Virus record (IMG/VR): IMGVR_UViG_3300027833_000015
Coordinates: 89,884-153,883 of that record
Reading direction: 5' to 3' (one strand)
Source of the DNA: a virus
Length of the DNA: 64,000 bases
The stretch's first letter is position 1, and each line of letters starts with the position of its first letter. Under the pieces are notes generated by a model. The model saw only the letters and a program-made list of their open reading frames with translations. It did not search any database and was not told the origin of the DNA. The position numbers and the translations under genes are program-made. Of the stretch, positions 5,456 through 62,257 are shown in pieces.

Positions 5456-5550
5456 CTCTTCCTTTTGGTTTCTCTCTCAACTTGCAACCATTATACCGCG
5501 ATGAGGGTACAAAGGCAAAGTCTAAAAAAGTGAATAGAATCAACAACTTA
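5456..5550 (-). promoter_or_regulatory. IHF-box/sigma70 early promoter/RBS cassette, copy 1
   Basis: IHF consensus AATCAACAACTTA 5538-5550; -35 TTGCCT, 17-bp spacer, -10 TATAAT; AAGGAAG RBS. Confidence 0.85.
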
Positions 5551-5766
5551 GACAACAACCCTGAACCATGGTTGGTTACGGTTGCGAGCAGTATTGACCG
5601 CCACGAACCCCAGATCAGCGAAGTCGTACAATTCGTCTTTGATCTTCTGGAGATTTTCGCTGGTGGTATCGATGTTCGCCAACACTGCGATGCTATGTGC
5701 ATTCAAAGACGAGTTGGACTCGCTCAGTGCTTTCAGGATACCATATGCTGTTACTTCGTTTTTCAT
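5548..5766 (-). CDS. Small early protein (possible winged-helix)
   Basis: Single ORF between two cassettes; its stop lies inside the IHF box. Confidence 0.6.
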   Translation of the reverse strand: MKNEVTAYGILKALSESNSSLNAHSIAVLANIDTTSENLQKIKDELYDFADLGFVAVNTARNRNQPWFRVVV

Positions 5767-5772
5767 ACTCAC

Positions 5773-5863
5773 TTCCTCTTGTGTTCTCTCTCAACTGCAA
5801 CCATTATAGCGCGATGAGGGTACAAAGACAAAGTCTGAAAAACTGAATAGAATCAACAACTTA
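5773..5863 (-). promoter_or_regulatory. IHF/promoter cassette, copy 2
   Basis: IHF box 5851-5863; TTGTCT-17-TATAAT. Confidence 0.85.
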
Positions 5864-6487
5864 CGTTGATGTGACGAATTCCACATTGGAGGGTGTGGGT
5901 ATTTTGGTGTTGGGGTGCTTGTGATATAGGACGAATTTGGTGTCCTTGAACTCATTGAATATCCCCGTCCAGATCGGACGCCAGATATCAAGCAGTCTGT
6001 GGTTGTTGATACCACTACGGTCACTGTTCAGGACAACGTCCGTGTACGAGCGCATGTTGTGGTCAAAGATCGAGTCGAATCCATACATGTGGATCTCGTC
6101 GGGTTGATGCCGTGTGGCGGCATAGTGAGTTGCGAGGTGTCCGCAATTGAAGTTTGTTGCACCGAGGTCGCCTTCGCCTGCATAAGAAGGAACTGTTGTA
6201 TAGAATTCCCTGATGTGCGATGCATGCTTCATGGCAAATACTGGGCGAGATTCCATAAACATCTTCGGGCGAGTGCCACAGATCCAGTGAAATCCATTCA
6301 GATCAATCGAACCTTCTTCGAGAGCAAAGCACATCTTGAAGTCAACAATGCAGGTGGCATAAGGTCGGACAACTTCGAACGGTGGCATGTTACACACAAT
6401 CAACTTGTCTGCGCGTTCGTACCGAATTGCTTCTGGCATCATCTGTGCCATGTCACCGTTGCCGAGTATGTGTAACTTCTTTGTCAT
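5861..6487 (-). CDS. Glycan-cluster protein, DUF115/GT29-like Rossmann fold
   Basis: HILGNG start, NCGHLA and IHMYGFD motifs. Confidence 0.55.
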   Translation of the reverse strand: MTKKLHILGNGDMAQMMPEAIRYERADKLIVCNMPPFEVVRPYATCIVDFKMCFALEEGSIDLNGFHWICGTRPKMFMESRPVFAMKHASHIREFYTTVPSYAGEGDLGATNFNCGHLATHYAATRHQPDEIHMYGFDSIFDHNMRSYTDVVLNSDRSGINNHRLLDIWRPIWTGIFNEFKDTKFVLYHKHPNTKIPTPSNVEFVTST

Positions 6488-7131
6488 AGTTTCATCTGTT
6501 TACGAATTTCTAGATTACCTTTCTCACCAGTCCAATGCATTATGACTGGATTGTTTGGAACGTTATTATCTATATGGTCTATTCTAAGCACATTAAACCT
6601 ATGGGGGACGTCTGCTATCATCATCACCTTACGCATAGCGTCACCACCTATCATAGCATGCAGAACTTCTTGGTCTCCGCGATGCTCCTTCTTCCCAGCA
6701 ACATTCATCCACTGGCGTAGAACTGGGGGTCTTCCTTCAAACGCAATAACTCCAGTGTTGTACCAGTCGCCTTTCTCTGGTCTGCGCAAACTCCAAGGGT
6801 GATCTTTTATCATTGCCAGTTTGTTGTGGACAACATAGTTGAATATTTCTTTGGGGTCTGACATTACTTGGCAGTCTGTGTCTAACCAACAAACTCTGTT
6901 AAACTCTTGGTCTGACGCTTCAAGCATTGCTTCTATCTTCGAGAACCAACCATTTGATTTACAGGCGATAATACGATGAGCAAAACTAGACACGCTCTTC
7001 AGCATCTCTTCGCTCATACCAAAGTCGGCAATGATTAACGGAGTCTTGCTGTGCTTTGAATAGTTATCGATGAACCAAGGCAATTGCCACTCAGTGTTCT
7101 TATCACAACCTGTTAGGTAACATGCGGTCAT
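6484..7131 (-). CDS. GT-A glycosyltransferase (GT8-like)
   Basis: WLDTD DxD motif, YNTGV, GDQEVL, IMHWTG. Confidence 0.8.
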   Translation of the reverse strand: MTACYLTGCDKNTEWQLPWFIDNYSKHSKTPLIIADFGMSEEMLKSVSSFAHRIIACKSNGWFSKIEAMLEASDQEFNRVCWLDTDCQVMSDPKEIFNYVVHNKLAMIKDHPWSLRRPEKGDWYNTGVIAFEGRPPVLRQWMNVAGKKEHRGDQEVLHAMIGGDAMRKVMMIADVPHRFNVLRIDHIDNNVPNNPVIMHWTGEKGNLEIRKQMKL

Positions 7132-7772
7132 AGTATCCTATAGGTCTCCCCGTAGTTATGTTTCGCTATGCATCCTGCTGTGGTCTGCATGGTGCTAAAA
7201 TCATCTCTCGCCTCAACTGGCCAAGGATAATACTCTTCGACAAAATCAAAGTTGCTATTGCATATGAATAGGTCTGTAGTTTGACCCAGAGTTTTCGCCT
7301 TCTCTATCAGAACCTTTGCTGCTTTAGGTTTTACGATATATGCGTGTGCTCCAGGAAGGTACTGTTTCGAGACGAGAGTATTGACACCAAGTATCGGAGG
7401 AGTAATAAACTTGCCATAACTTGGTGCACCCAGAGATAGCACTCCTTTGAAGTTAAGCGTGGTCGGGAGAAAGTTTGTGAAGACAGCATCGTGTTCAAGA
7501 ACAAAAACATCGACGTTTTGTTCTACAGAGTATTGCCAAAGTTTGTGATGTGAAAGGAAAGCAGAAAGGCATGGTTCTAATCGGGAATACACTTCCCTAA
7601 ATCCGTTGGTCTCTATTCCGAGGTTTTTGGCGATAGAAAGTGGATCATCTTTCGGAGTGTACGCTGGTGAAACTTCTACTTCTACACCATATTTTTTACC
7701 AGACCGCACACACCTCTGTGCGACTTGTACCGACTCTTCCATTCCAGTGATCGTTATAACAAATGCTTTCAT
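7128..7772 (-). CDS. GT25-like glycosyltransferase
   Basis: AFLSHHKLW, VLEHDA, GAHAYIVKPKAAKVL. Confidence 0.8.
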   Translation of the reverse strand: MKAFVITITGMEESVQVAQRCVRSGKKYGVEVEVSPAYTPKDDPLSIAKNLGIETNGFREVYSRLEPCLSAFLSHHKLWQYSVEQNVDVFVLEHDAVFTNFLPTTLNFKGVLSLGAPSYGKFITPPILGVNTLVSKQYLPGAHAYIVKPKAAKVLIEKAKTLGQTTDLFICNSNFDFVEEYYPWPVEARDDFSTMQTTAGCIAKHNYGETYRIL

Positions 7773-7900
7773 AACTTATGTCTTTTCTTCGGTTTACAAT
7801 TATATAGTTGTGCTGCTGTTGTCTGATTACACGGAGACAAACGGAGACCAATCATGGAACCCAATACGTTAAGAGGAATATACTTTCCTCTCCATGTGCC

Positions 7901-8629
7901 CTAGTTTGTTGTAGTAGAAATTATCTTCCTGGCATAAGTTGCATATGGATACAACACTTTTAGTTCGGGAAATAACTGTCGGCACATAACAGCATCATTT
8001 GGCCACATCCCTATGCGTTGAACTTCAGCAAGAAGTTTCTTTGCGAGTGCGGGTCTGATGAGATACGCACTGTTGCCAGCAAGTCCCATTGGAAAAGGTG
8101 GTTCTGTCGGTTCGTCGATGATGGGTACTCGGTGAATCCCGTCCCCACACGCTGCGACTTTTGCATGGAACAATTGTCCCTTGCGAGTATTGCCCCTCGG
8201 GTCATTTAACCCGACAGCACCCCATTTTGTATCTTCCATGATAACAGATATATCTATATCACGGATGAATTCTGCATCGTGCTCGAGTACCATGATTGGT
8301 TCGTTGGACTCAGCACATAATTTCCATAGACGGTAATGACTCAGCGCACACGCTACGACCTTGTTCTGGTCTGCTGCTTGGTAAGTCCTCTTGTGCAACC
8401 CAGTGTACAAGCAGTATCCGTCATCTTCTGTTCGGGTTGGCCATGACCATGCTATCTGTTTCCCGAACACATCCTGTATATGTTTATATATGTCTATTGG
8501 TTGCGTTGCCTCAAATGTATTAAACTTGACTGCTTGGGCGATCCAACAATTTCCACTAGATTGCGTGGCGTGACTTCCCAGCAAAGATAGAGGATGGTCT
8601 GACATTGTTATGATGTGTGCGTTTATCAT
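7901..8629 (-). CDS. GT25-like glycosyltransferase
   Basis: ACALSHYRLW, VLEHDA, GNSAYLIRP. Confidence 0.85.
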   Translation of the reverse strand: MINAHIITMSDHPLSLLGSHATQSSGNCWIAQAVKFNTFEATQPIDIYKHIQDVFGKQIAWSWPTRTEDDGYCLYTGLHKRTYQAADQNKVVACALSHYRLWKLCAESNEPIMVLEHDAEFIRDIDISVIMEDTKWGAVGLNDPRGNTRKGQLFHAKVAACGDGIHRVPIIDEPTEPPFPMGLAGNSAYLIRPALAKKLLAEVQRIGMWPNDAVMCRQLFPELKVLYPYATYARKIISTTTN

Positions 8630-9313
8630 TTAGAATCCGTGGGATGTCTTCAGGTTCTTGCTATTAAACTTCACGGGAGCAGGAGAAATATAATCCATAC
8701 TCACGTTCATACTATTTATGAAGAAATCAGACTGGTCGATTCCGTGAGTTTCTAATGCATCCAATAACCTTCTAGCACCTTTCGGTGTGAGCGCATACGC
8801 AGCAGTTCCAGGTGCCATGTCGCTAAATTTAAAAACATTGTCTTTGTAATATTTTAGTGGGTACGATATCGGAAACTTTCCTGCGCCTACAGGAAATTCA
8901 TATCCCAAGAATTGTCTCAGCGCGAGTGGACTTGGTGCTTTGAACACGTGGTCGCAGTTTAGCAGAAGATATTCCGAGAATTTGATTTTGGGTGGAGGAG
9001 ACACGCATATAGAATCGTGTTCGAAGAAACACATTCTCTTCTTGCCTCCAGCGACTTCTTGCCAGAAGTTAATGTGGTTGGTGAAGCAACTCATCTTGGT
9101 GTCGAATATTGCTTTGTCCTGTTTCTTAAAACCATCCAGTCTACCATTGGGGACGGGAGGTTTGTTATAGTGTTCGCTTTGAGAAACTGTCTTCGGTGTT
9201 ACACCTGCGTGGAGTTCAACGTCCCAACCGTGGGAAATAAAACTCTTCAGCGAGTCATTTGCTTGCTGAGTAGATTCTGCATGACCTTCGATGTATATGA
9301 TACGACCTTTCAC
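8630..9313 (-). CDS. GT25-like glycosyltransferase
   Basis: SCFTNHINFW, FEHDS, GTAAYALTPKGARRL. Confidence 0.8.
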   Translation of the reverse strand: MKGRIIYIEGHAESTQQANDSLKSFISHGWDVELHAGVTPKTVSQSEHYNKPPVPNGRLDGFKKQDKAIFDTKMSCFTNHINFWQEVAGGKKRMCFFEHDSICVSPPPKIKFSEYLLLNCDHVFKAPSPLALRQFLGYEFPVGAGKFPISYPLKYYKDNVFKFSDMAPGTAAYALTPKGARRLLDALETHGIDQSDFFINSMNVSMDYISPAPVKFNSKNLKTSHGF

Positions 9314-9861
9314 TTTCGCACCACCACAGTGGACTTCATAAAATACAAAGACTTATCGACGCCAACCTGTTGCGCCATAGACAGGAACTGAGAACTGCTT
9401 CTATCGTTTGGGTGATCTATGGCATGCTTCACCATGTCTGCGTTTCCAGATCTATGCTTCAATAGGACTTCTTCGAACCCAGCATTTTCAGTCAGACAGA
9501 GAAGTCCTTCTGGGGTAAACCTAAAGAAGTCTCCTGGCCAGTCATGAACCTGATACATGAAAGGGGATGACGCGATGAGCATGCCACCTTTATTGAGAAC
9601 TCGGTACGCTTCCTCTACGCACAACCATGGTTTCTTGCAGTGTTCGAGAACCTGATTCATTATAACGCAATCGAAAGACTCGTCTTCGTACGGAAGATCA
9701 TCTGCGCTGACTTCAGGGAATTGCGAGATAGTAACCTCATCAAACTTGGACAACCATTCTTTGGTCTGACCGCTGATCTCGAGGACGGAGTTGTTCGGGT
9801 ATTGGTTGTTTTCGAGAAACGACCCAACAACCCGCATGTACTCGAGTCGAGTCGCTTTCAT
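9310..9861 (-). CDS. Class I SAM methyltransferase (type 11)
   Basis: LPYEDESFDCV, VLEH, AYRVLNKGG, DFFRFT. Confidence 0.85.
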   Translation of the reverse strand: MKATRLEYMRVVGSFLENNQYPNNSVLEISGQTKEWLSKFDEVTISQFPEVSADDLPYEDESFDCVIMNQVLEHCKKPWLCVEEAYRVLNKGGMLIASSPFMYQVHDWPGDFFRFTPEGLLCLTENAGFEEVLLKHRSGNADMVKHAIDHPNDRSSSQFLSMAQQVGVDKSLYFMKSTVVVRK

Positions 9862-10439
9862 GCAATTCTCTCGATGACAGTACATCCACACTTTCCGAGA
9901 GGAAGATCAGCAACAACCTTCCATGTGTTGGGTTGCACCTTTTCGATAAACTGGGTCACAACCATGAACAGTTCCCTGCCCTTTTGGTTCACGTCATGGA
10001 ATGCAATCCTTTTTGAAACACTGCTGGCGTGAAGCATGAGTTCGTTCATCAGATAAACTGGATCGTGTAGACTGTCGATGTGCAGAAAGTCGCAGGGAGT
10101 AACGGAAGCGGTGTCTGTTGAACTCATCTCAAGTAGCGTGACCGTCTTACCAGAAGACTCTGCATAATCGTCGACAAACTTCTGCACAGATTGCCGATAC
10201 TTGTTGTATGAAATGTCAACACCGACAACTTCTTCTACGCCATCCAGCGCGAGGAACATGGCGAATGTACCGCCTTGCCATACGCCCAACTCTTTCACAA
10301 CGGCACAACCAGTGGCATACTCTGCGAGCATTTTGTCACGATCGTTTTCATATACGTTGTGGGACATACAGTGTTGTAGTCTGACTTCGAAGCAATCTTC
10401 GAGGGTCTTGCACTTTGAATAATCTAATGGTGCTGCCAT
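9858..10439 (-). CDS. SAM methyltransferase (Methyltransf_24-like)
   Basis: ELGVWQG, DFLHIDSLH, IAFHDV. Confidence 0.75.
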   Translation of the reverse strand: MAAPLDYSKCKTLEDCFEVRLQHCMSHNVYENDRDKMLAEYATGCAVVKELGVWQGGTFAMFLALDGVEEVVGVDISYNKYRQSVQKFVDDYAESSGKTVTLLEMSSTDTASVTPCDFLHIDSLHDPVYLMNELMLHASSVSKRIAFHDVNQKGRELFMVVTQFIEKVQPNTWKVVADLPLGKCGCTVIERIA

Positions 10440-10447
10440 GGTAGTAC

Positions 10448-11233
10448 CTATATTTGACTCATTAATGTATCGACGTCTTCACCGCGATCAGGCAGTTTGT
10501 TCTTGAGGAAGAAGTGTACGAAATATGCATTAACTATGCTTTTTTCAGTCACACCATTATATAGTGCGTTGAATTTCCACTCCATATCCTGCACCTGCAA
10601 TGGGACTTTCTTCACCCACCAGTTGAGCAGGGTCTGGTCGGTCGACCATTTCCACGCACCGTCACCGTCTACAAATCGTTTGAACTCGACTCGGTTCAAG
10701 AACTCTCGAGCGTTCTGTCCTTTGAAGTGTTTGACGATTGACTTGTTCATAACAATCATGCCCATGTTATAGAACTTCGCGCCAAGGGTGTTCCATTGCC
10801 AATCAACGTCAGACAAATTGCTATACTGCATGCGCGAGTAGTTGTATATCTTCTGCGCGTACTCGGGTGTGATCGGCATTTCTCTTTCAGCACAAGCACC
10901 GAAGTCGTATGCATAACTATCAAAGTGCTCGAAGATGTTTGGCGCGTCTGGACGAATGTAGATGTCTGCGTCGATTATCGCAATGTCGTCGAATCGATAG
11001 AAGTAATCGAATGCGTTTTCTTTTTCAAAGATGGGGAGATACCCACCGTATTTCTTGTAGGATTCAGTAGACCTATTCGTGGCGAATATGTCGGGGCATA
11101 TCCGAAGGATAGGTTGACGTTGTACGATGTGTTCGATGCCATACTTCTTGCAGTAGTTGGCAACAGAATCTATGCAGTGTTCGTAGAGTTTAGACTTTGG
11201 TCCAACCGCGACTTGATATATCATTTGCTTCAT
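10448..11233 (-). CDS. GT-A glycosyltransferase (GT8/GT34-like)
   Basis: IIDADI, YNMGMIV, TDQTLLN, FVHFF. Confidence 0.8.
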   Translation of the reverse strand: MKQMIYQVAVGPKSKLYEHCIDSVANYCKKYGIEHIVQRQPILRICPDIFATNRSTESYKKYGGYLPIFEKENAFDYFYRFDDIAIIDADIYIRPDAPNIFEHFDSYAYDFGACAEREMPITPEYAQKIYNYSRMQYSNLSDVDWQWNTLGAKFYNMGMIVMNKSIVKHFKGQNAREFLNRVEFKRFVDGDGAWKWSTDQTLLNWWVKKVPLQVQDMEWKFNALYNGVTEKSIVNAYFVHFFLKNKLPDRGEDVDTLMSQI

Positions 11234-11242
11234 TTACTTCCC

Positions 11243-33757: not shown

Positions 33758-33966
33758 TTCAATTCTCCATTATCATCAAATTCCATCGTACCTTCAACCA
33801 GTCTGCGACATACCTCTTGCGAGACTGCTGTGGTTCGCCTAGACACGGATGCTTTAGTGTCGTGCATCCACCGCATATTCCGCGTTCGCATTTCTGCTTC
33901 ATATGCGTTATCACGCATAGTGGCCAGTTCTTGGTTGCTAATTTCTTTCAGGTTCAACATATTCAT
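33754..33966 (-). CDS. Hypothetical early protein
   Basis: First gene after cassette copy 3. Confidence 0.6.
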   Translation of the reverse strand: MNMLNLKEISNQELATMRDNAYEAEMRTRNMRWMHDTKASVSRRTTAVSQEVCRRLVEGTMEFDDNGELK

Positions 33967-34047
33967 TTCTCCTCAATTCAGACTATATTATCTCGCAAAT
34001 TGAGTACAAAAGCAAGTTCCGATAAACCTAATAGAATCAATGACTTA
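33967..34047 (-). promoter_or_regulatory. IHF/promoter cassette, copy 3
   Basis: IHF box 34035-34047; TTGCTT-17-GATAAT; GAGGAG RBS. Confidence 0.8.
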
Positions 34048-34219
34048 CGGTAGGAGGCGAGAGACGCCCTCTCGCGCCCTCGAGAGGACTCCTTCGAGTC
34101 CCTTCCCCAGCGTATCCGTGACCCTCGAAACGCTCTCTCGCGTCCTCCTCGCGCCTCCCGAGAGGAGAAATGAGGAGAAATAGGGAAACTTGAATGGAAT
34201 CAACAGGTTATGTTTATGC

Positions 34220-37199: not shown

Positions 37200-37481
37200 T
37201 TACAATCCTCCTAATTTTAGGTATTTAAGGTGAGTGGGTAGTGCAAAGGCACCACTCCACGTGCGTTGTGCAGCGCGACGCTGCTTGATTTTTCTGCGCA
37301 GGATATTCCTACGCAGGTTGGCGAAACTTCTGTTATTACTTATAACAGTGCGCTCGAATTTTGTGTTGAGAACTGGTGAGTTCCCAGCGTACTGGCATGA
37401 AGCGTCCAGCAGACGCCAGTCCCACTGAGCGGGATTGCGTGCTTCACTACGGTCTTGCAACTGTTCGATTGTAATGCTCAT
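37200..37481 (-). CDS. Hypothetical basic early protein
   Basis: First gene after cassette copy 4. Confidence 0.6.
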   Translation of the reverse strand: MSITIEQLQDRSEARNPAQWDWRLLDASCQYAGNSPVLNTKFERTVISNNRSFANLRRNILRRKIKQRRAAQRTWSGAFALPTHLKYLKLGGL

Positions 37482-37578
37482 ATCTACTTCCTTCTGGTTT
37501 CACTCAATTCAGACTATATTATCGCGCAATCGAGGTACAAGGACAAGTTCGTAGAACCTGAATAGAATCAACAACCTA
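37482..37578 (-). promoter_or_regulatory. IHF/promoter cassette, copy 4
   Basis: Box AATCAACAACCTA 37566-37578; TTGTCC...GATAAT. Confidence 0.8.
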
Positions 37579-38036: not shown

Positions 38037-38429
38037 TTAGATCCCTGCCCAGCATAAACTCAGTTCCTCGTCATCAACGTGACCCCGAGCAAAGTTCAGT
38101 GCTGGAGCATGCCAAGACGCTGCCTTGAGGATGTCACCGACCTTGAATCCTTTGGTCTCTTTCCTCACGATGAACCCAACCACTGACTGGCGAATTCCCT
38201 CGCTCCGAATGACCTTGATGTAGTTTCGACCATCTTTGAAGATAATAGTGTACCTGTCGTGGCAGTCTTCATCTGCCTTGCTCTCCGACTGTTCAGACGT
38301 CAGCGCATAGTCGCTCACCTCTACCAGCAGCGAGTCACGCATCTTCTCTGACGTCTGCTCAGTCCACCGCGCATAGTCACTTTCTAGTATTTCTTTGACT
38401 CTTGCCTTGCCTGCTTCTATATCACACAT
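38037..38429 (-). CDS. Conserved phage early protein
   Basis: GRNYIKV...GDILKAASWHAPA...ARG motif. Confidence 0.7.
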   Translation of the reverse strand: MCDIEAGKARVKEILESDYARWTEQTSEKMRDSLLVEVSDYALTSEQSESKADEDCHDRYTIIFKDGRNYIKVIRSEGIRQSVVGFIVRKETKGFKVGDILKAASWHAPALNFARGHVDDEELSLCWAGI

Positions 38430-38526
38430 ATCTACTTCCTTCTCGTTTCACTCAACTCAGACTATATTATCGCATAATCAGGGTACAAAGACAAAGTCTC
38501 AAATACCCTGTGGAATCAACAACTTA
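38430..38526 (-). promoter_or_regulatory. IHF/promoter cassette, copy 5
   Basis: IHF box 38514-38526. Confidence 0.8.
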
Positions 38527-38850
38527 GTGAAAGTTGCCCTCTAGACAGTGTCGCATCTCGTGACCGAGACTATTCATATAAGTGTTAGAGTGTGAGTCAC
38601 GATAAACGTGGATTTCACAAACAGTACCCTTCATAGAGAATAAGGCATACCCGTCGATTGTCTCACCTTTGGGATACTGATTTCTTGGAGTCTGTCGTGC
38701 GTTATAGGACTCAAGCAATTCTTGGCGGTCATCGTATTTAATCACGGTGATCTGCATTTCCTGCTCTGATTTATCAAAGTCCTGCTTTGCTTGTGCACCA
38801 GCAGACGCTGCTATCGTGCTCAAAAGTAAAATCGCTGCTATAATTTTCAT
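38524..38850 (-). CDS. Secreted small HExxH protein
   Basis: Signal peptide; LGHEMRHC. Confidence 0.65.
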   Translation of the reverse strand: MKIIAAILLLSTIAASAGAQAKQDFDKSEQEMQITVIKYDDRQELLESYNARQTPRNQYPKGETIDGYALFSMKGTVCEIHVYRDSHSNTYMNSLGHEMRHCLEGNFH

Positions 38851-38948
38851 CTTTATTTTCCTTTGGTTTCTCTCTCAACTTGCAACCATTATAGCGCGAC
38901 CAAGAGACAAAGACAAAGTCTGAAAAAGTGAATAGAATCAATAACTTA
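38851..38948 (-). promoter_or_regulatory. IHF/promoter cassette, copy 6
   Basis: IHF box 38936-38948; TTGTCT-17-TATAAT. Confidence 0.85.
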
Positions 38949-47506: not shown

Positions 47507-47524
47507 GCTATATATTATACTCAA

Positions 47525-47938
47525 CTAGATTAGTTCGTCAACTGCACCTTCGCCAACATAGATACTCTTCATGTTGTCGGTTTGACAGATAATGGTCTTC
47601 ACTTTCTTGTACACTGGTTTGTTTGCCTTCTTCCACTCTTTTGCAAGCACACCACCCTGACCAAAGTCAGCAACAGCAAGAGCATATCGCCCATTGGCAG
47701 TCTTCAGCATGTGCAGTTGAACTGGGTCGCCTCCCTGCTCGAATGTCCAGATGAATAACATCTGATCAAGTGGGTCGAACCCTGCCATTGCATCTTGTTC
47801 GAGGAAATTAGATATGTCCTCGACGCACTGCAACGTGCATGGGTGTAAGTCTTCAACTCGTTCTTTCATTGGTGTGCTCCTGTTGTTTGATCTATTTAGT
47901 TCTGCGACATGCAGTATCTTCTGGATACGGTTTGACAT
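47525..47938 (-). CDS. Hypothetical protein
   Basis: ORF in operon order. Confidence 0.55.
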   Translation of the reverse strand: MSNRIQKILHVAELNRSNNRSTPMKERVEDLHPCTLQCVEDISNFLEQDAMAGFDPLDQMLFIWTFEQGGDPVQLHMLKTANGRYALAVADFGQGGVLAKEWKKANKPVYKKVKTIICQTDNMKSIYVGEGAVDELI

Positions 47939-50797: not shown

Positions 50798-50910
50798 CTC
50801 TAAAACCCCAAAGTAGCAGCGACGAGGTATAGTGGTACAAGCACGCTGGCAAGTACACCGAGAATAACAGCGTGGTATTTCAAGTCGCTCATACGTTCTT
50901 TCATTTTCAT

Positions 50911-51003
50911 ATTCCTCTTGGTTTCTCTCTCAACTTGCAACCATTATATCATTATCAAGGTACAAGGACAAGTTCTAAAAAAGTGAATAGAATCAAGCAC
51001 TTG
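50911..51003 (-). promoter_or_regulatory. IHF/promoter cassette, copy 7
   Basis: Box AATCAAGCACTTG 50991-51003; TTGTCC-17-TATAAT. Confidence 0.85.
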
Positions 51004-51247
51004 CGAATGCTAGTGCATCGACAGCAGCACGCATCACGACAAACTGTCCACAGAGTTTTCCCTCAACAACAACACCGTCAACATAGATGTAAGACTTTGA
51101 CTGGAGTGCTGAGAGATACCCAGCGACTTGGTTCACTGACAGCGACTCGACCATCGGTGCAACTTCATTACCGAAACCGAAGTCTCCACCGTTTTCGTTT
51201 TGGTTATCGATACACGCTTGGAGGACTAACTGTTCGTTCTTGTTCAT
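50993..51247 (-). CDS. Small winged-helix-like early protein
   Basis: Single gene between two cassettes; LSVNQVAGYLSALQSKSYI. Confidence 0.6.
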   Translation of the reverse strand: MNKNEQLVLQACIDNQNENGGDFGFGNEVAPMVESLSVNQVAGYLSALQSKSYIYVDGVVVEGKLCGQFVVMRAAVDALAFASA

Positions 51248-51248
51248 T

Positions 51249-51346
51249 TCTGTATTCCCTTTGATTTCTCTCTCAACTTGCAACCATTATATCGTTATCA
51301 AGGTACAAGGACAAGTTCTAAAAAAGTGAATAGAATCAACAACTTA
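51249..51346 (-). promoter_or_regulatory. IHF/promoter cassette, copy 8
   Basis: Nearly identical to copy 7; box 51334-51346. Confidence 0.85.
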
Positions 51347-51847
51347 CGATAACTGACTCATCGCTTGCTGTATCAGGAGTGGATCTGCTTTGGTCAACAG
51401 ACTCAGGGAATACTGCTTCTCCACCCGATACAACTTCCAGAACGCAGGGTCTTGAACCTTGATGTCAGCGGTGTTGTGTATCAGGTCGGCAACCTTGATG
51501 GTCTGTGACTCCGCTGGACCACGAGCATAGTGCTCAGCATCCATACGCTTCCTCAGAGCGCGATTCCCGTCCTCGGGGACGCTGACATCGGTCAGGAAGC
51601 GAACATACTCTCCAACGACCTCTCCGAACCTCCTCACGACCTCCTCCAGCGTGACAGGAGTGTCCTCCACAACGTCATGGAGGAGTGCCGCCATCAGCAT
51701 CTCCTCGGAGTGCTCGACCGTGGAGACGACTCTCGCGACCTCTATGGGGTGGGAGATATATGGTTTGTTATTATATTTCCGCTTCTGACCAAGGTGCGCT
51801 CGAGTGGCGAACCTCAGTGCGGAGTTTATTCTGAATCTATCGTACAT
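51344..51847 (-). CDS. HD-domain hydrolase, Mesh1/SpoT small alarmone hydrolase-like
   Basis: AHLGQKRK, PYISHP, ALLHDVVEDT, KVADLIHN. Confidence 0.88.
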   Translation of the reverse strand: MYDRFRINSALRFATRAHLGQKRKYNNKPYISHPIEVARVVSTVEHSEEMLMAALLHDVVEDTPVTLEEVVRRFGEVVGEYVRFLTDVSVPEDGNRALRKRMDAEHYARGPAESQTIKVADLIHNTADIKVQDPAFWKLYRVEKQYSLSLLTKADPLLIQQAMSQLS

Positions 51848-51851
51848 ACAT

Positions 51852-51931
51852 ATTCCTCTCAATTGCAACCATTATAGCGTGTCGCATATACAAGAACAAG
51901 TTCTGAAAACCTGAATAGAATCAATGACTTA
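51852..51931 (-). promoter_or_regulatory. IHF/promoter cassette, copy 9
   Basis: Box 51919-51931; TTGTTC-17-TATAAT. Confidence 0.8.
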
Positions 51932-55522: not shown

Positions 55523-56010
55523 TTATCTACTGCCAAATACAAACCGATATTCGCAAAGGCATATCCCGCATAGCACAGTGCCATGGGGACGTTGCCTTTG
55601 AATGATTGCTCCGCGCATATGTAGAAGTATATCACTCCTGTCAACGCTACCAACCACCCACTCACTGAAACAAACTCAATGGGGTTTCCATTAGAACGTG
55701 TCTCCTTCTTCTGTCAAATATACAACCGACTCACTCAACTGAGTCTTCAGTTGGACGAGGTCTGCTTCCAGTCTCTCCATCCAAACACCCTGCTCTTGGC
55801 CAGTTTGTTTACCATGCTGGATCAATGATTCCAGTGCTTTGATTTCTTCTTGAATTGTCATTATGCGTCCACCTTCTCAAAGACTTTTGCTTTCAGTTCT
55901 GCAACCTGCTGCATCAATCGGGCGATCTCCCTGTCCTTGATGGCAAGGCGATCTTCGTTCAATTCTATAGTGTTCCGAAGAATACTTTGAATCAGTTGGT
56001 CATTTTTCAT

Positions 56011-56105
56011 TTTACTTCCTTCCGTTTCTCTCGACTATGGAACTATTATCGCGTATTCAGGGTACAAAGACAAAGTCTAAAAACCTGAATAGAATCAATG
56101 GGTTA
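56011..56105 (-). promoter_or_regulatory. IHF/promoter cassette, copy 10
   Basis: Box AATCAATGGGTTA 56093-56105. Confidence 0.8.
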
Positions 56106-56256
56106 TGTTACAAGCACTCGCCAGAAGCAGCAGGACGCCTACAACGACCACTATGGACATCACTCGATCGTGGCGTGTCGCGCACTTGATTCGAGACTGA
56201 CGGATTCGCTCTTCTGATTCCGCACGACATTGTTCCAAAAATGCTTCACTTTTCAT
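56095..56256 (-). CDS. Small membrane protein (53 aa)
   Basis: Manual ORF MKSEAFLEQC...VVVVGVLLLLASACNITH between two cassettes. Confidence 0.6.
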   Translation of the reverse strand: MKSEAFLEQCRAESEERIRQSRIKCATRHDRVMSIVVVVGVLLLLASACNITH

Positions 56257-56354
56257 ACTCACTTCCTCTTGGTTTCTCTCTCAACTTGCAACCATTATAG
56301 CGCGAGGGAGGCACAAAGGCAAAGTCTAAAAAAGTGAATAGAATCAATGACTTA
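56257..56354 (-). promoter_or_regulatory. IHF/promoter cassette, copy 11
   Basis: Box 56342-56354; TTGCCT-17-TATAAT. Confidence 0.85.
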
Positions 56355-56387: not shown

Positions 56388-56464
56388 TGGTCGGGGATGG
56401 AGGATTTGAACCTCCGACCTCATGCTCCCAAAGCATGCGCACTACCAAACTGTGCTAATCCCCG
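56388..56464 (-). tRNA. tRNA-Pro (UGG)
   Basis: 77-nt cloverleaf CGGGGAT...TTTGGGA...GTTCAAATC...ATCCCCGACCA with encoded CCA. Confidence 0.97.
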
Positions 56465-56473
56465 TGGTGTTAT

Positions 56474-57874
56474 CTATATGTTTTGTCTCAGGTCGGACTC
56501 AACGGTTGCTTCTTGTGAGGTCGTGTATAGAAGTTTGTCTTCGCCCAAACTGTTGCAACGTCTTGGGGTGGTGAAGTTATATCCATACATATCCAATATC
56601 GCCATTTGTACTGGTGCTTCCATCGCATTAGTCTGCAACCAATCATTCCGACCTTTCATAAACTCGTGGAATATTCTCCTGTCATTGTATATCGAGGAAG
56701 ACATAATATCCATGTTGGCAGAGATGGCACGATTGTATAACCTTGGTGAACAAACCCTCGCCAGAGTATCTACGATCCACTTGTGAGGAACTTCGTGCAG
56801 GCGACACATAACCTTGTCAATGTATTTGTGGAACACTTCCTCGGCATTCTCCTCATCGTTCCGATATGCAGAACCATACATGCCACTCTTGGAGCAGATA
56901 TCCATCTTAACCATATTCTCCATGTGCTGAGTGTTGTCGGAATAGTATTTTAAAATCAATACAAGCACATGGTGGAGTAGGTCTCTCACGAACATCTCAT
57001 TACCATTTGAACCATACATAAGAATATCGGGCAACCTTTCTTGCATCTTAAGATGTTTGTATGTGGGTATGCATGCTTGCTGTCGGCAAGAAGAGTCAAC
57101 CAAATGGTTTAGACATTCCTGATAATCATCTTTTGAATGGTATGTGTAGTGGTGCGTATTAGGAAAGTTGCTTTGTGCTCGCTTCAGATACTCATGCTGG
57201 TTTTTTGATTTGCACGTGTCGAGACCATAGAGCAGTTGAAGGTCTTCGCGAAAAAACAATGACTGCAATGCAGAGTCCAACCCGTCACTGAGCGAGCAGT
57301 ACCGTAGTGGATACTTCTCTTTGATCACTTCTGAGTGATCCTTCATGCATTGGTGTATGTATTCGGTCAGTCCTTCAACGTCTTGCCAGACCTCTTGTGC
57401 GAGGGCATCTTTGGCGTCTTGATGATAATTGTAGAGAGGATTGAATATGACGACGTGATCGTAGAAAGTTGTGCACTCGGCATTAGAATGTTCTTGGTCG
57501 TGTCGATCGCCATAGAGATCTGTCCTAACAAGGTCTGTCTCTTCAATTGTCATATAGGGGAGATGGTTGGTGATTTCTATCCCATATTTTTCAGATATAA
57601 ACAGTTTGTGGTTTTGGAAATAGTCGACTGACAGATCATAATTATTTTTTGTCAGTTTAACTGCAAAGAAGTTTCCATTCGCTTCCCTGAAACTAAAGTT
57701 CGAACAAACTTCTTCTATGTCTCCTTCAATCAAATATCCGCAATAGAGGACAATGTGGTCTGCGAATTTCCATATCTCAACTTTGTCGTCTCGAATAAAA
57801 TACCAGTCGCCATAGTTCTCAACGTGTTGTTGTTTAGTGAACTTGGATTTGTCTTTGCATATAAAAAACTTCAT
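56474..57874 (-). CDS. Asparagine synthetase-like ATP pyrophosphatase / amide ligase
   Basis: SLSDGLDS PP-loop, GSNGNEMF, ANGNFFAV (Ntn remnant); no N-terminal Cys. Confidence 0.7.
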   Translation of the reverse strand: MKFFICKDKSKFTKQQHVENYGDWYFIRDDKVEIWKFADHIVLYCGYLIEGDIEEVCSNFSFREANGNFFAVKLTKNNYDLSVDYFQNHKLFISEKYGIEITNHLPYMTIEETDLVRTDLYGDRHDQEHSNAECTTFYDHVVIFNPLYNYHQDAKDALAQEVWQDVEGLTEYIHQCMKDHSEVIKEKYPLRYCSLSDGLDSALQSLFFREDLQLLYGLDTCKSKNQHEYLKRAQSNFPNTHHYTYHSKDDYQECLNHLVDSSCRQQACIPTYKHLKMQERLPDILMYGSNGNEMFVRDLLHHVLVLILKYYSDNTQHMENMVKMDICSKSGMYGSAYRNDEENAEEVFHKYIDKVMCRLHEVPHKWIVDTLARVCSPRLYNRAISANMDIMSSSIYNDRRIFHEFMKGRNDWLQTNAMEAPVQMAILDMYGYNFTTPRRCNSLGEDKLLYTTSQEATVESDLRQNI

Positions 57875-57878
57875 AGTA

Positions 57879-58562
57879 TCACCAGAAGGTTACTATCTCG
57901 TGCGCGTGTACAGCGCAATGTATCTGGAAGGTTATCCGTGACTCTCCATCGAGGCAGACAACATTGCCAATGGCATGCTGAGTCATACCACCCCAGTGTC
58001 CCAGCATGCCCACGGTGTAGTCCAGATGGCGGTCAACTCCCTGATCGTCCTGCCATTTCAGACCAGTGGGGGTGGATGGTAATACAATCGGAACAACATA
58101 CGAATCTATTTCAATGCCACGCAACTCTTCTATCTTGTATATGTCGCGGTGGTATACGTTCTTCCTCGCCTGATGCGCGTCAAGCGAATCAGAACTCCGC
58201 TCACGTTCATCAAGATTAGCATCGTCCATGTATCCACCTGTGTAGAGTGGACCATTGAATATATGGAATCCAGGATAATTTAGATTGGGACTGAATCGTA
58301 TTGGTCTGGAGTATCGCTCTCCAAGAGTTTCGAAGAGTTTGGCATATAACCATGAGAACTCCTCCATCATAAATGGTTTCGTGCTCTGGAGGACTTGGAC
58401 GCCCCGAGTGGTGGCAATGGCGGCACTCATGGGGAGCATACACATCTCCCTCTTTCCCGCATACATTGGTTCCCAATACTCTTCCAGTCGGTGTAGTGAC
58501 TCCAAGATTTCTTCTATCTCTTCGGGGCACAACCAACTATCAGATAATACAGAGGGATACAT
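57879..58562 (-). CDS. 2OG-Fe(II)-type oxygenase
   Basis: PGFHIF, HRD, HAIG, RITFQIH. Confidence 0.7.
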   Translation of the reverse strand: MYPSVLSDSWLCPEEIEEILESLHRLEEYWEPMYAGKREMCMLPMSAAIATTRGVQVLQSTKPFMMEEFSWLYAKLFETLGERYSRPIRFSPNLNYPGFHIFNGPLYTGGYMDDANLDERERSSDSLDAHQARKNVYHRDIYKIEELRGIEIDSYVVPIVLPSTPTGLKWQDDQGVDRHLDYTVGMLGHWGGMTQHAIGNVVCLDGESRITFQIHCAVHAHEIVTFW

Positions 58563-58784
58563 CTATGGGTTGATGATCATCTCGATAAACTCATCCATTC
58601 CTTTCACAGACTCAATGTCGTTGAGTGGGATGGATATGTCGAGTTCGTCTTCTATGTCCATGATGAGATCCATCATAGACAGCGAGTCAATCTCGTTGAA
58701 CTCCTGCTGGGAATTCTCTTCCATGTGTTCATTAATGACCTGCACGATTCTTTCTCGTACAACTCGCTCAATTCTTGTCTTCAT
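58563..58784 (-). CDS. Acyl carrier protein
   Basis: IDSLSMMDLIMDIEDELDISIP phosphopantetheine-site helix; acidic 73 aa. Confidence 0.85.
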   Translation of the reverse strand: MKTRIERVVRERIVQVINEHMEENSQQEFNEIDSLSMMDLIMDIEDELDISIPLNDIESVKGMDEFIEMIINP

Positions 58785-59038
58785 GAGTGCCTCTCATACA
58801 CATATACATCATACCGAGTGGCATTATTTAGTCCACCCTCTATGTTCCCGCACCAGTCATACTTTGACCCGTCAGCAGGAACTCTTCCTCGTAGCAGTAC
58901 GCGCAGTCGGGTTGGTATGCCCATCTGTTTGTGCTGCTTGTTTGTCCACTTGATCCGTTCTCTCAGTTCCAACACAGCAGGGTCATTCCTGTCATGCGTT
59001 GTCAACCTGTGGGAATCGCTGCGTTTGTTCTCGCTCAT
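58781..59038 (-). CDS. Hypothetical protein
   Basis: Coupled ORF. Confidence 0.55.
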   Translation of the reverse strand: MSENKRSDSHRLTTHDRNDPAVLELRERIKWTNKQHKQMGIPTRLRVLLRGRVPADGSKYDWCGNIEGGLNNATRYDVYVYERHS

Positions 59039-60132
59039 AGATCGTCTCTCCACTGCAATGCTATCGGCAATTGCGGTATGTTATCCTTGGACATATTGTG
59101 AAACTTGACAGTCAGCATATTGCCAACCAACAGGTCTCTCTCAATCCACTGGTCATCTTTCTGTTGCATGGTTCCATTTGCTGTGACGTTGAACTTCGCG
59201 CCATCTTCGGTCTCGCATATCCACACGGGAACCTGAAACATCTCATCGCCTCGGATGTAGGGTTTGCCCTCTTCATATCCGACGACCTTGAACTCAGCGT
59301 CATGAAACTCTTTGACCTTGAGTAGTTTGCGAGACCGTTTGTCTGTCCCGTATCCGTCAGTGCCAAAGCGCAACATCGTGCCCTCGTATCCTGCCTCACG
59401 CCATTTCTTGTGAAGCATCGTCACCTCTTCCATATCGTATACATCGTATGTGGGGTTGACAACAATCTTCGGATGGAACTCATGGTATCCTTCCTCAAAG
59501 TCCTTAGTCCTCTCAGAGAAAGATGCATTCTCGTCCACAACATCATAGATGTGGTACTCGACCTGCTCGGACTCGGGAGTCAACTTCTTGATGAGGGATC
59601 CCAATTCCTGTAGCGTCTTGCCATGCAGATACAACTCACCGTCGAGGTGTAGACCCTGACGGTCTGATGCATTGATAGCATCAACGATGTGAGGCAGATT
59701 GATCACCTTGCCCGAGCGAGAGTATAGAACACCATCGACAAACAATGCACGATGACCGTCCAACTTGGGTTGAACGTATGCGGTGTTCCACTCAATGCTC
59801 TCTGGTTTGACCTTATCCAGCGATGTCGCCAGCATGGGTTTCTTCAGACCAAGCGCATTGGTTGCTGGTGCAACTGCTGCCTTCTTTGTCTTGACATACC
59901 CTTTGTCAATCTTACGCTTCGACTTGCTGACGTTCTCGAGCACTGCCTGTTCTTCGGGAGTGGTCTCATTCGACCGTCCGACGTTCTTCCCCTTGGCAGT
60001 GTACTGAGTCGTGACCCAACTTCCACCAAGTTTAGTGACGGAGGAACTGAAGACAACTGCACCTTCAGTCCAACCCTCCCACGAACCAACGGACTTGCCG
60101 TGATTCTTGAACAGTGTGATCTTATTCGCCAT
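59035..60132 (-). CDS. ATP-dependent DNA ligase
   Basis: QPKLDGHR, LDGELY, YEGTMLR, LLKVK, C-terminal OB fold. Confidence 0.93.
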   Translation of the reverse strand: MANKITLFKNHGKSVGSWEGWTEGAVVFSSSVTKLGGSWVTTQYTAKGKNVGRSNETTPEEQAVLENVSKSKRKIDKGYVKTKKAAVAPATNALGLKKPMLATSLDKVKPESIEWNTAYVQPKLDGHRALFVDGVLYSRSGKVINLPHIVDAINASDRQGLHLDGELYLHGKTLQELGSLIKKLTPESEQVEYHIYDVVDENASFSERTKDFEEGYHEFHPKIVVNPTYDVYDMEEVTMLHKKWREAGYEGTMLRFGTDGYGTDKRSRKLLKVKEFHDAEFKVVGYEEGKPYIRGDEMFQVPVWICETEDGAKFNVTANGTMQQKDDQWIERDLLVGNMLTVKFHNMSKDNIPQLPIALQWRDDL

Positions 60133-60374
60133 TATTCTCCATCCTCCTCATTCAATTCTTTCTTGTCCTTGAGGTATGACTTCATGCCCTCAAGTCCACC
60201 AAGGCAGGAGATGTCGAGGTTATACTGTGCCTCAATCTTCTCAATCAACCCTTGCTTCTTCTCCAGAACATAGTAGTCCTGTGGGTGCAGGGGAATGCTA
60301 TTCGCCTTGCCTGATTTCGCCCAACGCTCAATGCGCTCTGCTAATGGTGTTGCCACTTGTGATAATGCTGCCAT
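60132..60374 (-). CDS. Hypothetical protein
   Basis: ORF in operon. Confidence 0.5.
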   Translation of the reverse strand: MAALSQVATPLAERIERWAKSGKANSIPLHPQDYYVLEKKQGLIEKIEAQYNLDISCLGGLEGMKSYLKDKKELNEEDGE

Positions 60375-60505
60375 GATTATATTCCCATTCCTATGATTGT
60401 TCCTAATGCTACACCGACAATTGCCAGTAATACAAACCCAAATAACTCGTTTTTCCAATCGGTCATACCCTTCACTTTCTTATTCCTTGTTGCCATATCT
60501 TTCAT

Positions 60506-60596
60506 TTTTACTTCCTCTCTTCTCAACGAACAACTATTATCCTACAATCGAGGGACAAAGACAAAGTCTAAAATCCCTATACAAATCAACAACTTA
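60506..60596 (-). promoter_or_regulatory. IHF/promoter cassette, copy 12
   Basis: Box 60584-60596; TTGTCT...GATAAT. Confidence 0.8.
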
Positions 60597-60848
60597 GATC
60601 ATCTCGAGCATGGTCGATGCGAGTATGCTTCCCATGACAGCATTGAGTAGTATCAGTGCGCGATCTTTCCACATGATGGATACCCACAACCAACCTACAC
60701 AGGCAGCGAATCCGAGCATAATATCATACTCACGAAACTCTGGTCCAGCAGCGCGAAACAACACGCTCGTCAGCACCATAGCAGTTGCCACCCACTTGAC
60801 ATACCAGTCCAGTCCACGTTTGTCAGTATCTACATGACTCGTTGACAT
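60594..60848 (-). CDS. Small multi-pass membrane protein
   Basis: DWYVKW...WKDRALILLN. Confidence 0.7.
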   Translation of the reverse strand: MSTSHVDTDKRGLDWYVKWVATAMVLTSVLFRAAGPEFREYDIMLGFAACVGWLWVSIMWKDRALILLNAVMGSILASTMLEMI

Positions 60849-61051
60849 TACTGGAACTCGCTCAGTCGCTCAGCGAACCATTCCTGATTCTCCTCGACTG
60901 CCTTGCGCAACTTCACTAATTCAAACTGCTGGTCTTCGAGCAGTTCCAACATGCGGAGTGCTTCCGAGTATCGGATGACCTCGCCATAATCGCTCTCCAC
61001 GAGTCGTGCGCGGTCTGCTTCGTAGTCTACTTCCAGTGCATATCGTTTCAT
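60848..61051 (-). CDS. Hypothetical protein
   Basis: Coupled ORF. Confidence 0.55.
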   Translation of the reverse strand: MKRYALEVDYEADRARLVESDYGEVIRYSEALRMLELLEDQQFELVKLRKAVEENQEWFAERLSEFQ

Positions 61052-61495
61052 TTTACTTCTCCCATCTTCGTATCAACTTGTTCACATTTATCTTCGTCCA
61101 CCCAGTACACCACGCACACCTCACCCGAGCACGTCGAGATAGTCTCGAGTGGCAGGTGGGAGAGTGGTCCAAAGAGAACCTGATTGATCAGCAATGCGCA
61201 TATAGCAGTCATTATACTCTCCTGTTCAGTTCTTTCTTGACTTCGTCAAGGCGATTGCAGTCAGCAAGACTGACCGTCTTGTGCTCAGGCAGTGCGTCCA
61301 GCATCTTATAGAAGTCGCGGACTTCTGTTCTGAGTCCTTGCTTGGTCATTTCACTTGCTATATTCATCTCTACCTTTCCTCGTATTCTATAACGCCAAAC
61401 AAAATGTCTACTTCGGTGACCGTATAACCTAATGCTCTGAGTTCCCTGATCTTGCCTTTGATTGCTGTAAGTGTGTTTTCTACTACTGTTAACAT

Positions 61496-61592
61496 ATCTA
61501 CTTCCTTCTTGTTTCACTCAACTCAGACTATATTATCGCACAATCAGGAGGCAAAGACAAGAGGTAAAAACCTGAATAGAATCAATGACTTG
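61496..61592 (-). promoter_or_regulatory. IHF/promoter cassette, copy 13
   Basis: Box AATCAATGACTTG 61580-61592. Confidence 0.8.
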
Positions 61593-61770
61593 GGGGCATC
61601 ACCCAGAAACAACCATCGTGGTTGCAGATCTCGCGCTGCCATTTGTTTCCTCCATACACACCAAGGAATGAGACCCAATTGCGAGAATATTCGCTCTCCT
61701 TGTAATAGAACACCACCTTCTGTCCTTCGGGTGGGATGCTGTCTCTGATGTCGTTCCATTCAATGTTCAT
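61582..61770 (-). CDS. Small DUF551-like early protein
   Basis: W...PPEGQKV...WVMPP; stop lies in the IHF box. Confidence 0.55.
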   Translation of the reverse strand: MNIEWNDIRDSIPPEGQKVVFYYKESEYSRNWVSFLGVYGGNKWQREICNHDGCFWVMPPSH

Positions 61771-61988
61771 TGCATATCTCCTTCGAGTGCATGGGGGTTG
61801 CTTCGTGCGCGACTCCGACCCTCTTCATAATACGGACTGTATTCAGGTGCTTTGAGTTTCTGTCCTCGATCATTTCGAATTTCTTCAACACGCTCATCAC
61901 ACTGACGAGCATATGCATGGTATGCTGCAAGTGCGTTTGCTTTCATACACTTCAGTTCTTTGATGCTTTGCACGTTGGATATCTTCAT
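61767..61988 (-). CDS. Hypothetical early protein
   Basis: Coupled ORF. Confidence 0.5.
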   Translation of the reverse strand: MKISNVQSIKELKCMKANALAAYHAYARQCDERVEEIRNDRGQKLKAPEYSPYYEEGRSRARSNPHALEGDMQ

Positions 61989-62162
61989 TTCGCCACCAGT
62001 TTATAACCACTGTATGGGTCATCTCTCTTCAATTCTTCAACCAAAGCAAGTCCTGCTGCTTCGTTGTCTGCCACCTTGATGATGCTCCACTCCCCAACAG
62101 AGGACTGGTACTGACCATATTCATCACGACCCATGACAATGTAGACTTTAGACTGTTTCATT

Positions 62163-62257
62163 TTCCTTCCTTCTCTCTATTCTCTCAACTGCAACCATTA
62201 TAGCACTATGAGGGGACAAAGACAAAGTCTAAAAAACTGAATAGAATCAGGAACTTA
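62163..62257 (-). promoter_or_regulatory. IHF/promoter cassette, copy 14
   Basis: Box AATCAGGAACTTA (1 mismatch); TTGTCT-17-TATAAT. Confidence 0.8.

Follow-up and report, generated by a model that had tools for sequence, protein, structure and literature searches.

Repeated promoter cassettes with a putative IHF site upstream in an uncultured T4-like phage

What is the role of a near-invariant box that recurs just upstream of many promoters of one uncultured phage, and could the protein that reads it be the integration host factor (IHF) of the host? The question is raised by a 64,000-nucleotide stretch of viral DNA, hereafter the window, which is the final 64 kb of the 153,883-bp IMG/VR record IMGVR_UViG_3300027833_000015, a genome rated 85% complete. 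A preliminary description of the window had listed 14 minus-strand copies of an element in which this box is followed by a promoter and a ribosome-binding site (RBS). We confirmed that the repeated element is real and far above chance expectation. The 18-mer TAAGTYRTTGATTCTATT, with up to three mismatches, matched the window 15 times against 0.25 expected, and 14 of these matches were on the minus strand: 12 of the 14 sites listed before, an orphan box at 34193-34210 and the degraded copy at 38526. All 14 listed sites were recovered with a whole-element profile, which added three further copies, at 23.9, 26.3 and 26.6 kb of the genome, for a total of 17.

The aligned copies, about 95 bp long, bore out the layout that had been proposed (box, T-tract, -35, 17 bp, -10, leader and RBS). 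The order is (C)G, TAAGTYRTTGATTCTATTCA, two free bases, TTTT(T), about five bases and TTGYYY, followed by a 17-bp spacer, (T/G)ATAAT, a leader, a GAGGAA/AGGAAG RBS and the ATG. The box is 20 bp long and near-invariant, and the conserved leader takes one of two forms, GTTGAGAGAGAAACC or TGAGTTGAGTGAAAC. TTGNNN-17-(T/G)ATAAT is present in every copy, and the distance from the start of the box to the start of the -10 is exactly 55 nt in 17 of 17 copies. With the -10 set at -12 to -7, the box spans -67 to -48 and the T-tract -45 to -41. Moreover, all copies share one orientation, each with a complete promoter, a Shine-Dalgarno (SD) sequence and an ATG at fixed geometry. Note that the -35 of this box-bearing class is always non-consensus (TTGTCT, TTGTCC, TTGCCT or TTGTTC). 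The upstream gene takes its stop codon from the box in about nine of the 14 window copies, either as the TAA or as the TGA within TTGATT. Several copies had been said to bracket exactly one gene, and this was the case for all five genes named, at 5548-5766, 38524-38850, 50993-51247, 51344-51847 and 56095-56256.

Does the box correspond to an IHF site? The canonical site has four elements, namely WATCAA, TTR 4 bp further on, two kink steps and an A-tract; the kink steps are usually AA and lie 9 bp apart, and the A-tract, of 4-6 A, is in the site's other half (PMC1874591). The reverse complement of the box, AAAAAAGTGAATAGAATCAACAACTTA, carries all four. The exact consensus WATCAANNNNTTR was matched 17 times in the window versus 3.6 expected, and the 13 matches within boxes make up the whole excess; the consensus together with an A-tract at the spacing of the lambda H' site gave 9 matches versus 0.02 expected. 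It had been claimed that 12 of the 14 listed copies match the consensus exactly, which is correct, the exceptions being the copies at 37578 (TAGG) and 62257 (CTGATT). Over 45 non-redundant copies, taken from the phage and relatives together, position statistics showed TAA and TTGAT at or near 2 bits, with WATCAA and TTR almost invariant. Positions 6-7, which coincide with the NNNN of the IHF site, vary freely, as do positions 21-22. The second kink step is the TT at box positions 17-18 (38 and 39 of the 45 copies), 9 bp from the AA of ATCAA, and the A-tract is the conserved TTTT(T) at positions 23-27, 8 bp from the W as in lambda H'. The site in the box is single and asymmetric.

The comparison with phage lambda, whose H1 and H' sites were taken from the sequence NC_001416, supports this assignment. 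The core of attP H1 (TAAGTAGTTGATTC, plus strand) is identical to the phage box core (TAAGTTGTTGATTC) at 13 of 14 positions, and H' (AAAAAAGCATTGCTTATCAATTTGTTG) has the same register as the box: A-tract, 8 bp, WATCAA, N4 and TTR. The setting is different, however, because H1 and H' adjoin the recombination core of lambda, whereas the phage box lies directly upstream of a promoter in 17 copies and no integrase was found. By sequence comparison, therefore, the upstream IHF-type site that the preliminary description had claimed is a full canonical site of this type at a fixed distance from the promoter.

The element also resembles the PeSL cassettes of the T4-type phages RB49 and phi1, which are repeats of about 100 bp that precede ORFans in hyperplastic regions (Arbiol et al. 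2010, PMC2839356). A PeSL consists of an upstream stop codon in an AT-rich stretch, a sigma70-like promoter, an SD and a start codon; recombination between copies leads to indels and replacements among related phages, and a stem-loop overlapping the -35 characterises one published subclass (PMC2839356). Further traits of PeSLs are early promoter activity during infection and the formation of mini-circles. Location, upstream stop codon, promoter, SD, ATG and shuffling among relatives (see below) are all found in the phage element. Two features set it apart. First, the defining stem-loop of PeSLs, a stable structure in or beside the promoter with a role as terminator or attenuator, occurs here only in a subset of copies. 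The -35 lies between the arms of an 8-10 bp inverted repeat, TTCAGG(G)T ... ACC(C)TGAA, in about 12 of the 45 non-redundant copies (in the window 56105 and 38526, in the genome 23963, and in relatives several, including G001 and L001); most copies here have no left stem arm, and whole-element fold z-scores are near 0. The contrast drawn earlier, that it is PeSLs that carry stem-loops, is thus right for most copies and wrong for this subset, and the layout as a whole is PeSL-like. Second, the place of the AT-rich upstream region is taken by a near-invariant, asymmetric 20-bp box at a rigid distance from the promoter. The PeSL paper (PMC2839356) makes no mention of integration host factor, and full-text literature searches, on the motif itself and on IHF in combination with PeSL or T4-like early promoters, gave no description. 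On this comparison the element is best filed as a putative PeSL-type early-promoter cassette, the novelty of which would be the fixed IHF-type upstream site. A T4 middle promoter, dependent on MotA and AsiA, was ruled out, since the -35 TTG is conserved at 17-bp spacing and the phage genome gave no AsiA or MotA_activ match.

Next, we asked which part of the element is kept among relatives. These were collected by scanning IMG/VR with part of the box and then by profile searches, and comprise near relatives of about 80% DNA identity (G004, L011, L045, L057 and L058) and diverged relatives with a GC content of 38-48% (G002, G001, G003, G005, L001, L006, L021 and L039). Between the clades the box core is the best-conserved segment of the element, with 85% identity compared to 77% for the T-tract, 55% for the -35, 42% for the spacer and 34% for the leader. 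A search with the core promoter alone gave 39 significant promoters in five genomes, of which 38 carry the box and the 39th a degraded one.

The same genome has a second repeated family of sigma70-type promoters, with a perfect TTGACAT -35, a leader of its own (CTCGAGGAA) and no box. Its layout on the minus strand is TTGACAT(C)NNAATCC...-TATAAT; copies are at window positions 4700-4735 and genome positions 31607, 10449 and 4423, with looser matches at window 47512-47541 and genome 38129 and 366, all on the minus strand. A weak -35 in the class with the box and a perfect one in the class without it fit an upstream-bound factor that compensates for the -35, and the box may serve this purpose.

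Could this factor be the polymerase itself? The box and T-tract might form a lineage-specific upstream promoter element, contacted by the C-terminal domain of the polymerase alpha subunit (alpha-CTD) or kept alike by descent or gene conversion, with an IHF likeness that has no function. AT-rich upstream regions are known in T4-type early promoters and PeSLs, the T-tract is at the position of the proximal UP subsite, and the copies within one genome are recombining repeats, all of which this explanation accommodates. Nevertheless, the box is no plain A/T tract: certain G and C positions are near-invariant in it, while positions 6-7 and 21-22 are free, and it holds its 85% identity between clades whose core promoters have gone down to 42-55%. 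Moreover, its 17-base motif turned up in unrelated viral and bacterial contexts that have no promoter, including the space between tRNA ends and integrase genes. We consider a mere upstream element unlikely.

These contexts are informative about the reader of the motif. The 17-base motif GTAAGTNNTTGATTCTATT is present in at least 118 IMG/VR stretches and at least 120 stretches of bacterial genomes, where a rough hand calculation for the IMG/VR and GTDB scans gives a chance expectation of tens of matches. The sequence downstream differs widely among the IMG/VR matches listed, with about 100 contexts. Other sigma70-like promoters, including types with a TTTAC -35, make up about a quarter to a third of these, and their -10-like hexamers cluster 53-56 nt from the box start; the rest are unrelated to promoters. 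Among the bacterial matches listed, many belong to Acidobacteriota and Burkholderiales, 24 of 121 sites directly adjoin the CCA end of a complete tRNA gene (11 kinds), and further sites border tRNA 3' halves. The bacterial order is tRNA-CCA, ATAGAATCAA-NN-ACTTAC and then either a hairpin with a T-run or island-type genes. At the two loci checked, L237 (676-2010) and L261 (7280-7915), a tyrosine integrase gene converges on the motif. This order of tRNA end, motif and integrase is that of core, H' and int in lambda, and from its sequence setting the bacterial motif resembles an IHF site of the H' type, shared widely by tRNA-linked integrative elements. Among the bacterial loci L226-L339 the motif, as ATAGAATCAANNACTTAC, comes directly after the CCA of many different tRNA genes, in Acidobacteriota, Burkholderiales and other bacteria; behind it there is often a terminator hairpin or a tyrosine integrase gene, and the integrase stop codon can fall within it.

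At the tRNA-linked sites the transcribed strand is opposite to that of the phage, which argues for recognition of the motif as double-stranded DNA, not RNA. Since its contexts are so varied, they also argue for a widely conserved host protein as its reader, not a phage-specific one. A role of the box at the RNA level was ruled out by the opposite transcribed strand at the bacterial sites, together with the fact that most copies fold like shuffled sequences. With up to two mismatches, the motif was more frequent than its reversed control in Burkholderiales genomes (8 versus 0, 13 versus 4, and 4 versus 0), and showed no enrichment in an AT-rich SAR116 genome (13 versus 11). IhfA scored above the curated cut-off in the tested Burkholderiales and in an Endozoicomonas genome; the IHF/HU-like proteins of two Acidobacteriota genomes are below it. 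The box has other arrangements as well. In one further repeated family it is linked to CCCCTCCAAAACCCTA-N-TTTACCCTTAGAA (the IMG/VR loci L109, L112, L159, L167, L183, L201 and L208, and L293 from a bacterial genome bin), and some unrelated viral contigs carry the box as inverted or tandem pairs (L219, L120, L162 and L170). The L293 contig was binned with Polynucleobacter, which hints that some box-bearing phages have freshwater Burkholderiales hosts.

Another possibility could be that the box is the operator of a phage-encoded regulator common to the group, for example a repressor that shuts off early transcription when middle transcription begins. Its conservation is indeed wider than the minimal IHF consensus demands, a protein bound next to the -35 could block the polymerase, and since AsiA and MotA were not found, the early promoters would need some other means of shut-off. 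The asymmetric, single site is unlike typical dimeric operators, however, and the same motif stands beside bacterial tRNA genes and in many unrelated viral contigs. In addition, no candidate DNA-binding gene was identified, and no gene of the HU/IHF family was found in the phage genome (85% complete record). An operator of this kind is decidedly unlikely.

A further alternative reads the box on its other strand, as a divergent or antisense promoter with the reverse complement AAGACA-17-TAGAAT. Plus-strand matches (9 of 12) were indeed returned inside several copies by a consensus scan. Yet the match to the -35 is poor, the plus strand has no gene there, the tRNA-linked bacterial sites run straight into a terminator or the 3' end of an integrase gene, and the conserved TAAGT part of the box would be left without a role. 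We regard this explanation as highly improbable.

If the elements are PeSL-type cassettes, gene content should change at them, and the preliminary description had predicted gene exchange that ends at the element. In this genome the order is gene 27, element, HD_4 gene, element, gene 29; in the near relative L057 it is gene 27, one element, gene 29. The L057 element is chimeric, with an upstream flank that matches copy 51931 and a downstream part that matches copy 51346, so one cassette was gained or lost via a crossover inside the repeat. The diverged relative G002 retains the element behind its homologue of 5861-6487, homology ends between spacer and leader, and the genes that follow are homologues of window 58781-60848; the 72-aa gene at 5548-5766 lies elsewhere in G002, behind another element. 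Gene-order strings showed an element after gene 27 in four of four covering genomes, and an element a few genes before gene 53 in three of three, in both cases with different genes behind. The synteny check thus bore out the prediction, with one cassette absent from L057, a gene swap in G002 and breakpoints within the element, and gene content between elements is not fixed among the relatives compared. By these gene orders, the elements are hot spots of gene change and not its sole route.

These same breakpoints might suggest that the element is primarily recombinational, an att-like or integron-like site in which the IHF-type site aids synapsis or bending and the promoter is secondary. The att-like positions of the motif beside bacterial tRNA genes and integrases would fit such a role. 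However, no tyrosine recombinase was found in the 85%-complete genome, and the breakpoints differ, being in the box/-35 region in L057 and after the spacer in G002, as expected of homologous exchange. One orientation and a complete promoter, SD and ATG at fixed geometry in all copies also speak against it. We judge this explanation very unlikely. Because no recombinase gene was found and the breakpoints are scattered, exchange by homologous recombination, as for PeSLs, is likely.

What kind of phage carries these cassettes? Nearly all genes of the 154-kb genome are on the minus strand. Its DNA polymerase is of the T4 type, with 53% identity to that of the metagenomic 'Phage C48C1' (Kyanoviridae) and about 46% to those of cyanomyoviruses, and sheath and baseplate genes were found. 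The genes driven by the elements are mostly short ORFans, with no Pfam family and no orthologue in relatives; the others are the HD_4 gene at 51344-51847, a DUF7717 gene and, outside the window, a gene for a 760-aa peptidase. Together, the T4-type polymerase, the sheath and baseplate genes and the ORFans behind the elements mark the phage as an uncultured T4-like myovirus that carries the elements among its accessory genes, in plastic regions. Against cultured phages, a 5.4-kb stretch had no match by megablast and one element only chance-level matches by blastn, and so we found no cultured relative with the element. In Rfam, tRNA was the sole family found. A cyanobacterial host is disfavoured because psbA was not found in the phage genome, despite the fact that the nearest polymerase matches are Kyanoviridae. 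Motif enrichment and GC content lead us to guess at a freshwater Burkholderiales host.

Taken together, the best explanation of these data would be PeSL-type early promoters with a site for a host IHF-family protein, shuffled by homologous recombination. From the comparisons above we give it a probability of roughly 0.6. That host IHF binds the box and helps transcription start, taken on its own, has odds somewhat better than even, and is strongly suggested by the canonical match, the conservation across clades and the use of the motif in unrelated contexts. We infer early timing for the genes behind the elements, and IHF in the host of the phage.

In the mechanism that we propose, the host sigma70 RNA polymerase would start at TTGYYY-17-(T/G)ATAAT, and the leader and SD would start translation of a small accessory gene. 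Each cassette would offer one asymmetric site of high affinity for the IHF-family protein, which would take up about -67 to -41, its A-tract arm adjoining the -35. If IHF binds as in the 34-35 bp H' complex, its footprint would be approximately -71 to -37, with kinks near -60 and -51, and the sharp bend, centred near -55, would aid the polymerase at the weak -35. The bend could act by wrapping upstream DNA, by direct polymerase contact or by excluding silencers, in principle as at the Mu promoter Pe (PMC3820752). Finally, the 17 direct repeats of about 95 bp would allow phage homologous recombination to delete, insert and exchange genes. A link between early expression and the growth phase of the host, which the preliminary description had also proposed, is speculation.

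IHF sites at phage early promoters have precedents. Lambda pL is an early sigma70 promoter with a host IHF site upstream. In phage Mu, an IHF site affects transcription from the early promoter Pe (PMC3820752). Both raise early transcription and are single sites of temperate phages, located further upstream and tied to repressor/operator systems, whereas here a T4-like, lytic phage would have many copies of a site that abuts the -35. Phage SPO1 encodes its own protein of the HU/IHF family, TF1, which represses and binds early promoters in DNA containing hydroxymethyluracil. The proposed situation is alike in having an IHF-family minor-groove binder at phage early promoters, and differs from SPO1 in that no HU/IHF homologue was found here.

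Several observations weigh against an IHF-dependent promoter shuffled at the element. Box positions 4-5 and 14-20 hold 1.1-1.6 bits, above what the published IHF consensus demands, although lambda H1 shares box positions 4-5 and 13-14; a more sequence-specific protein, or homogenisation from copy to copy, could contribute to this extra conservation. In some copies box positions 14-22 double as a stem-loop arm. A UP-element-like alpha-CTD site could account for the T-tract at -45 to -41, instead of or besides the A-tract of an IHF site, and the T-tract is missing from the tRNA-linked bacterial sites. The IHF site in the Mu early region has no extended similarity to the box. Most relatives were found through the box itself, a bias of the sample that the search with the core promoter corrects only in part. 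Gene-content differences also occur away from the elements, as with a 466-aa gene that is elsewhere in G004. Lastly, an IHF footprint reaching -37 would overlap the usual place of the alpha-CTD, and repression is therefore possible; it seems unlikely, because nearly all copies of this early promoter, which looks strong, have the site built in.

A bolder version of the IHF proposal would be that an entire group of uncultured aquatic T4-like phages has made one high-affinity host IHF site an obligatory component, at a rigid position, of one early-promoter class, that IHF is the one host architectural protein able to mark incoming DNA with hypermodified thymine for immediate strong transcription, and that tRNA-linked att sites in different phyla use the same optimal site as the phage promoters. 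Since IHF reads DNA through its minor groove and backbone (PMC1874591), it could tolerate a thymine modification in the major groove, with which most host factors that read this groove would fail. We consider this version rather doubtful.

The copies in the window, all on the minus strand, vary in detail around the common plan. That at 62159..62257 has the CTGATT variant of the box, without the exact IHF consensus, followed by the T-tract, TTGTCT-17-TATAAT, leader, RBS and the ATG of a 58-aa ORFan. The copy at 61493..61592 is of the subtype with GATAAT and the TGAGTTGAGTGAAAC leader, and the upstream open reading frame (ORF) ends at the TGA in its box. The weakest copy, at 60501..60597, has an intact box core (TAAGTTGTTGATTT), a diverged 3' part of the box and TTGTCT-17-GATAAT. 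Directly downstream of a tRNA-Pro gene (56388-56464) is the copy at 56254..56354, with a 53-aa ORF behind it, and at 56008..56105 is one whose -35 is enclosed by an 8-bp stem (TATTCAGG / CCTGAATA).

On the other side of the same tRNA-Pro gene, a gene at 56474-57874 (minus strand) encodes a 466-aa ORFan with no Pfam or PHROG family. Its sole homologue, in the relative G004, is located elsewhere in the genome, flanked by the homologues of genes 134 and 135, and has no element next to it. From this distribution it looks like a mobile gene.

The copy at 51845..51931 precedes the HD_4 (ppGpp-hydrolase-like) gene at 51344-51847, the cassette that is missing in L057. The product of this minus-strand gene has a RelA/SpoT-type hydrolase fold (1.5e-15), and the cassette gene may possibly encode an early ppGpp hydrolase. 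Its stop codon is the TAA of the box of the next copy, at 51245..51346, which is followed by an 84-aa ORFan. The copy at 50908..51003 is a CAAGTG variant that keeps the exact IHF consensus, and the gene behind it is a 36-aa membrane-like ORF. Behind the copy at 38848..38948 is the gene for a 108-aa protein with a signal-peptide-like start. In the copy at 38427..38526, ahead of the DUF7717 gene, the 3' part of the box is replaced (CCACAGGG) and an 8-bp stem is formed with the spacer (CAGGGTAT / GTACCCTG). The copy at 37479..37578 is the TAGG variant, whose TAG is the stop codon of the upstream gene.

The copy at 33964..34047 has a short leader, with the SD GAGGAG immediately after the -10 region. 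The orphan box at 34193..34210 (TAACCTGTTGATTCCATT) lies 163 bp upstream of it and has the exact IHF consensus with no promoter behind. Between the two, the stretch 34050-34190 (minus strand) is GC-rich, rich in CGAGAG/CTCTCG and non-coding-looking, and it folds no better than shuffled sequences (z = -0.4). Finally, the copy at 5764..5863 is the one that in G002 keeps the same upstream gene with different genes behind, and together with the copy at 5450..5550 it brackets the single 72-aa gene at 5548-5766, which is located elsewhere in G002.

T4-type early promoters are the textbook case of promoters that need the host sigma70 polymerase only. If the proposed role of the box is true, a host architectural protein would join the takeover programme of lytic T4-like phages, and early expression would hinge on a host factor that varies in level with physiology. 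Cassette shuffling after the PeSL model is extended from coliphages to environmental phages, with breakpoints mapped within the element. Moreover, the 18-20 bp motif would be a practical marker of early promoters in metagenomic phage contigs, and may indicate hosts that have IHF.

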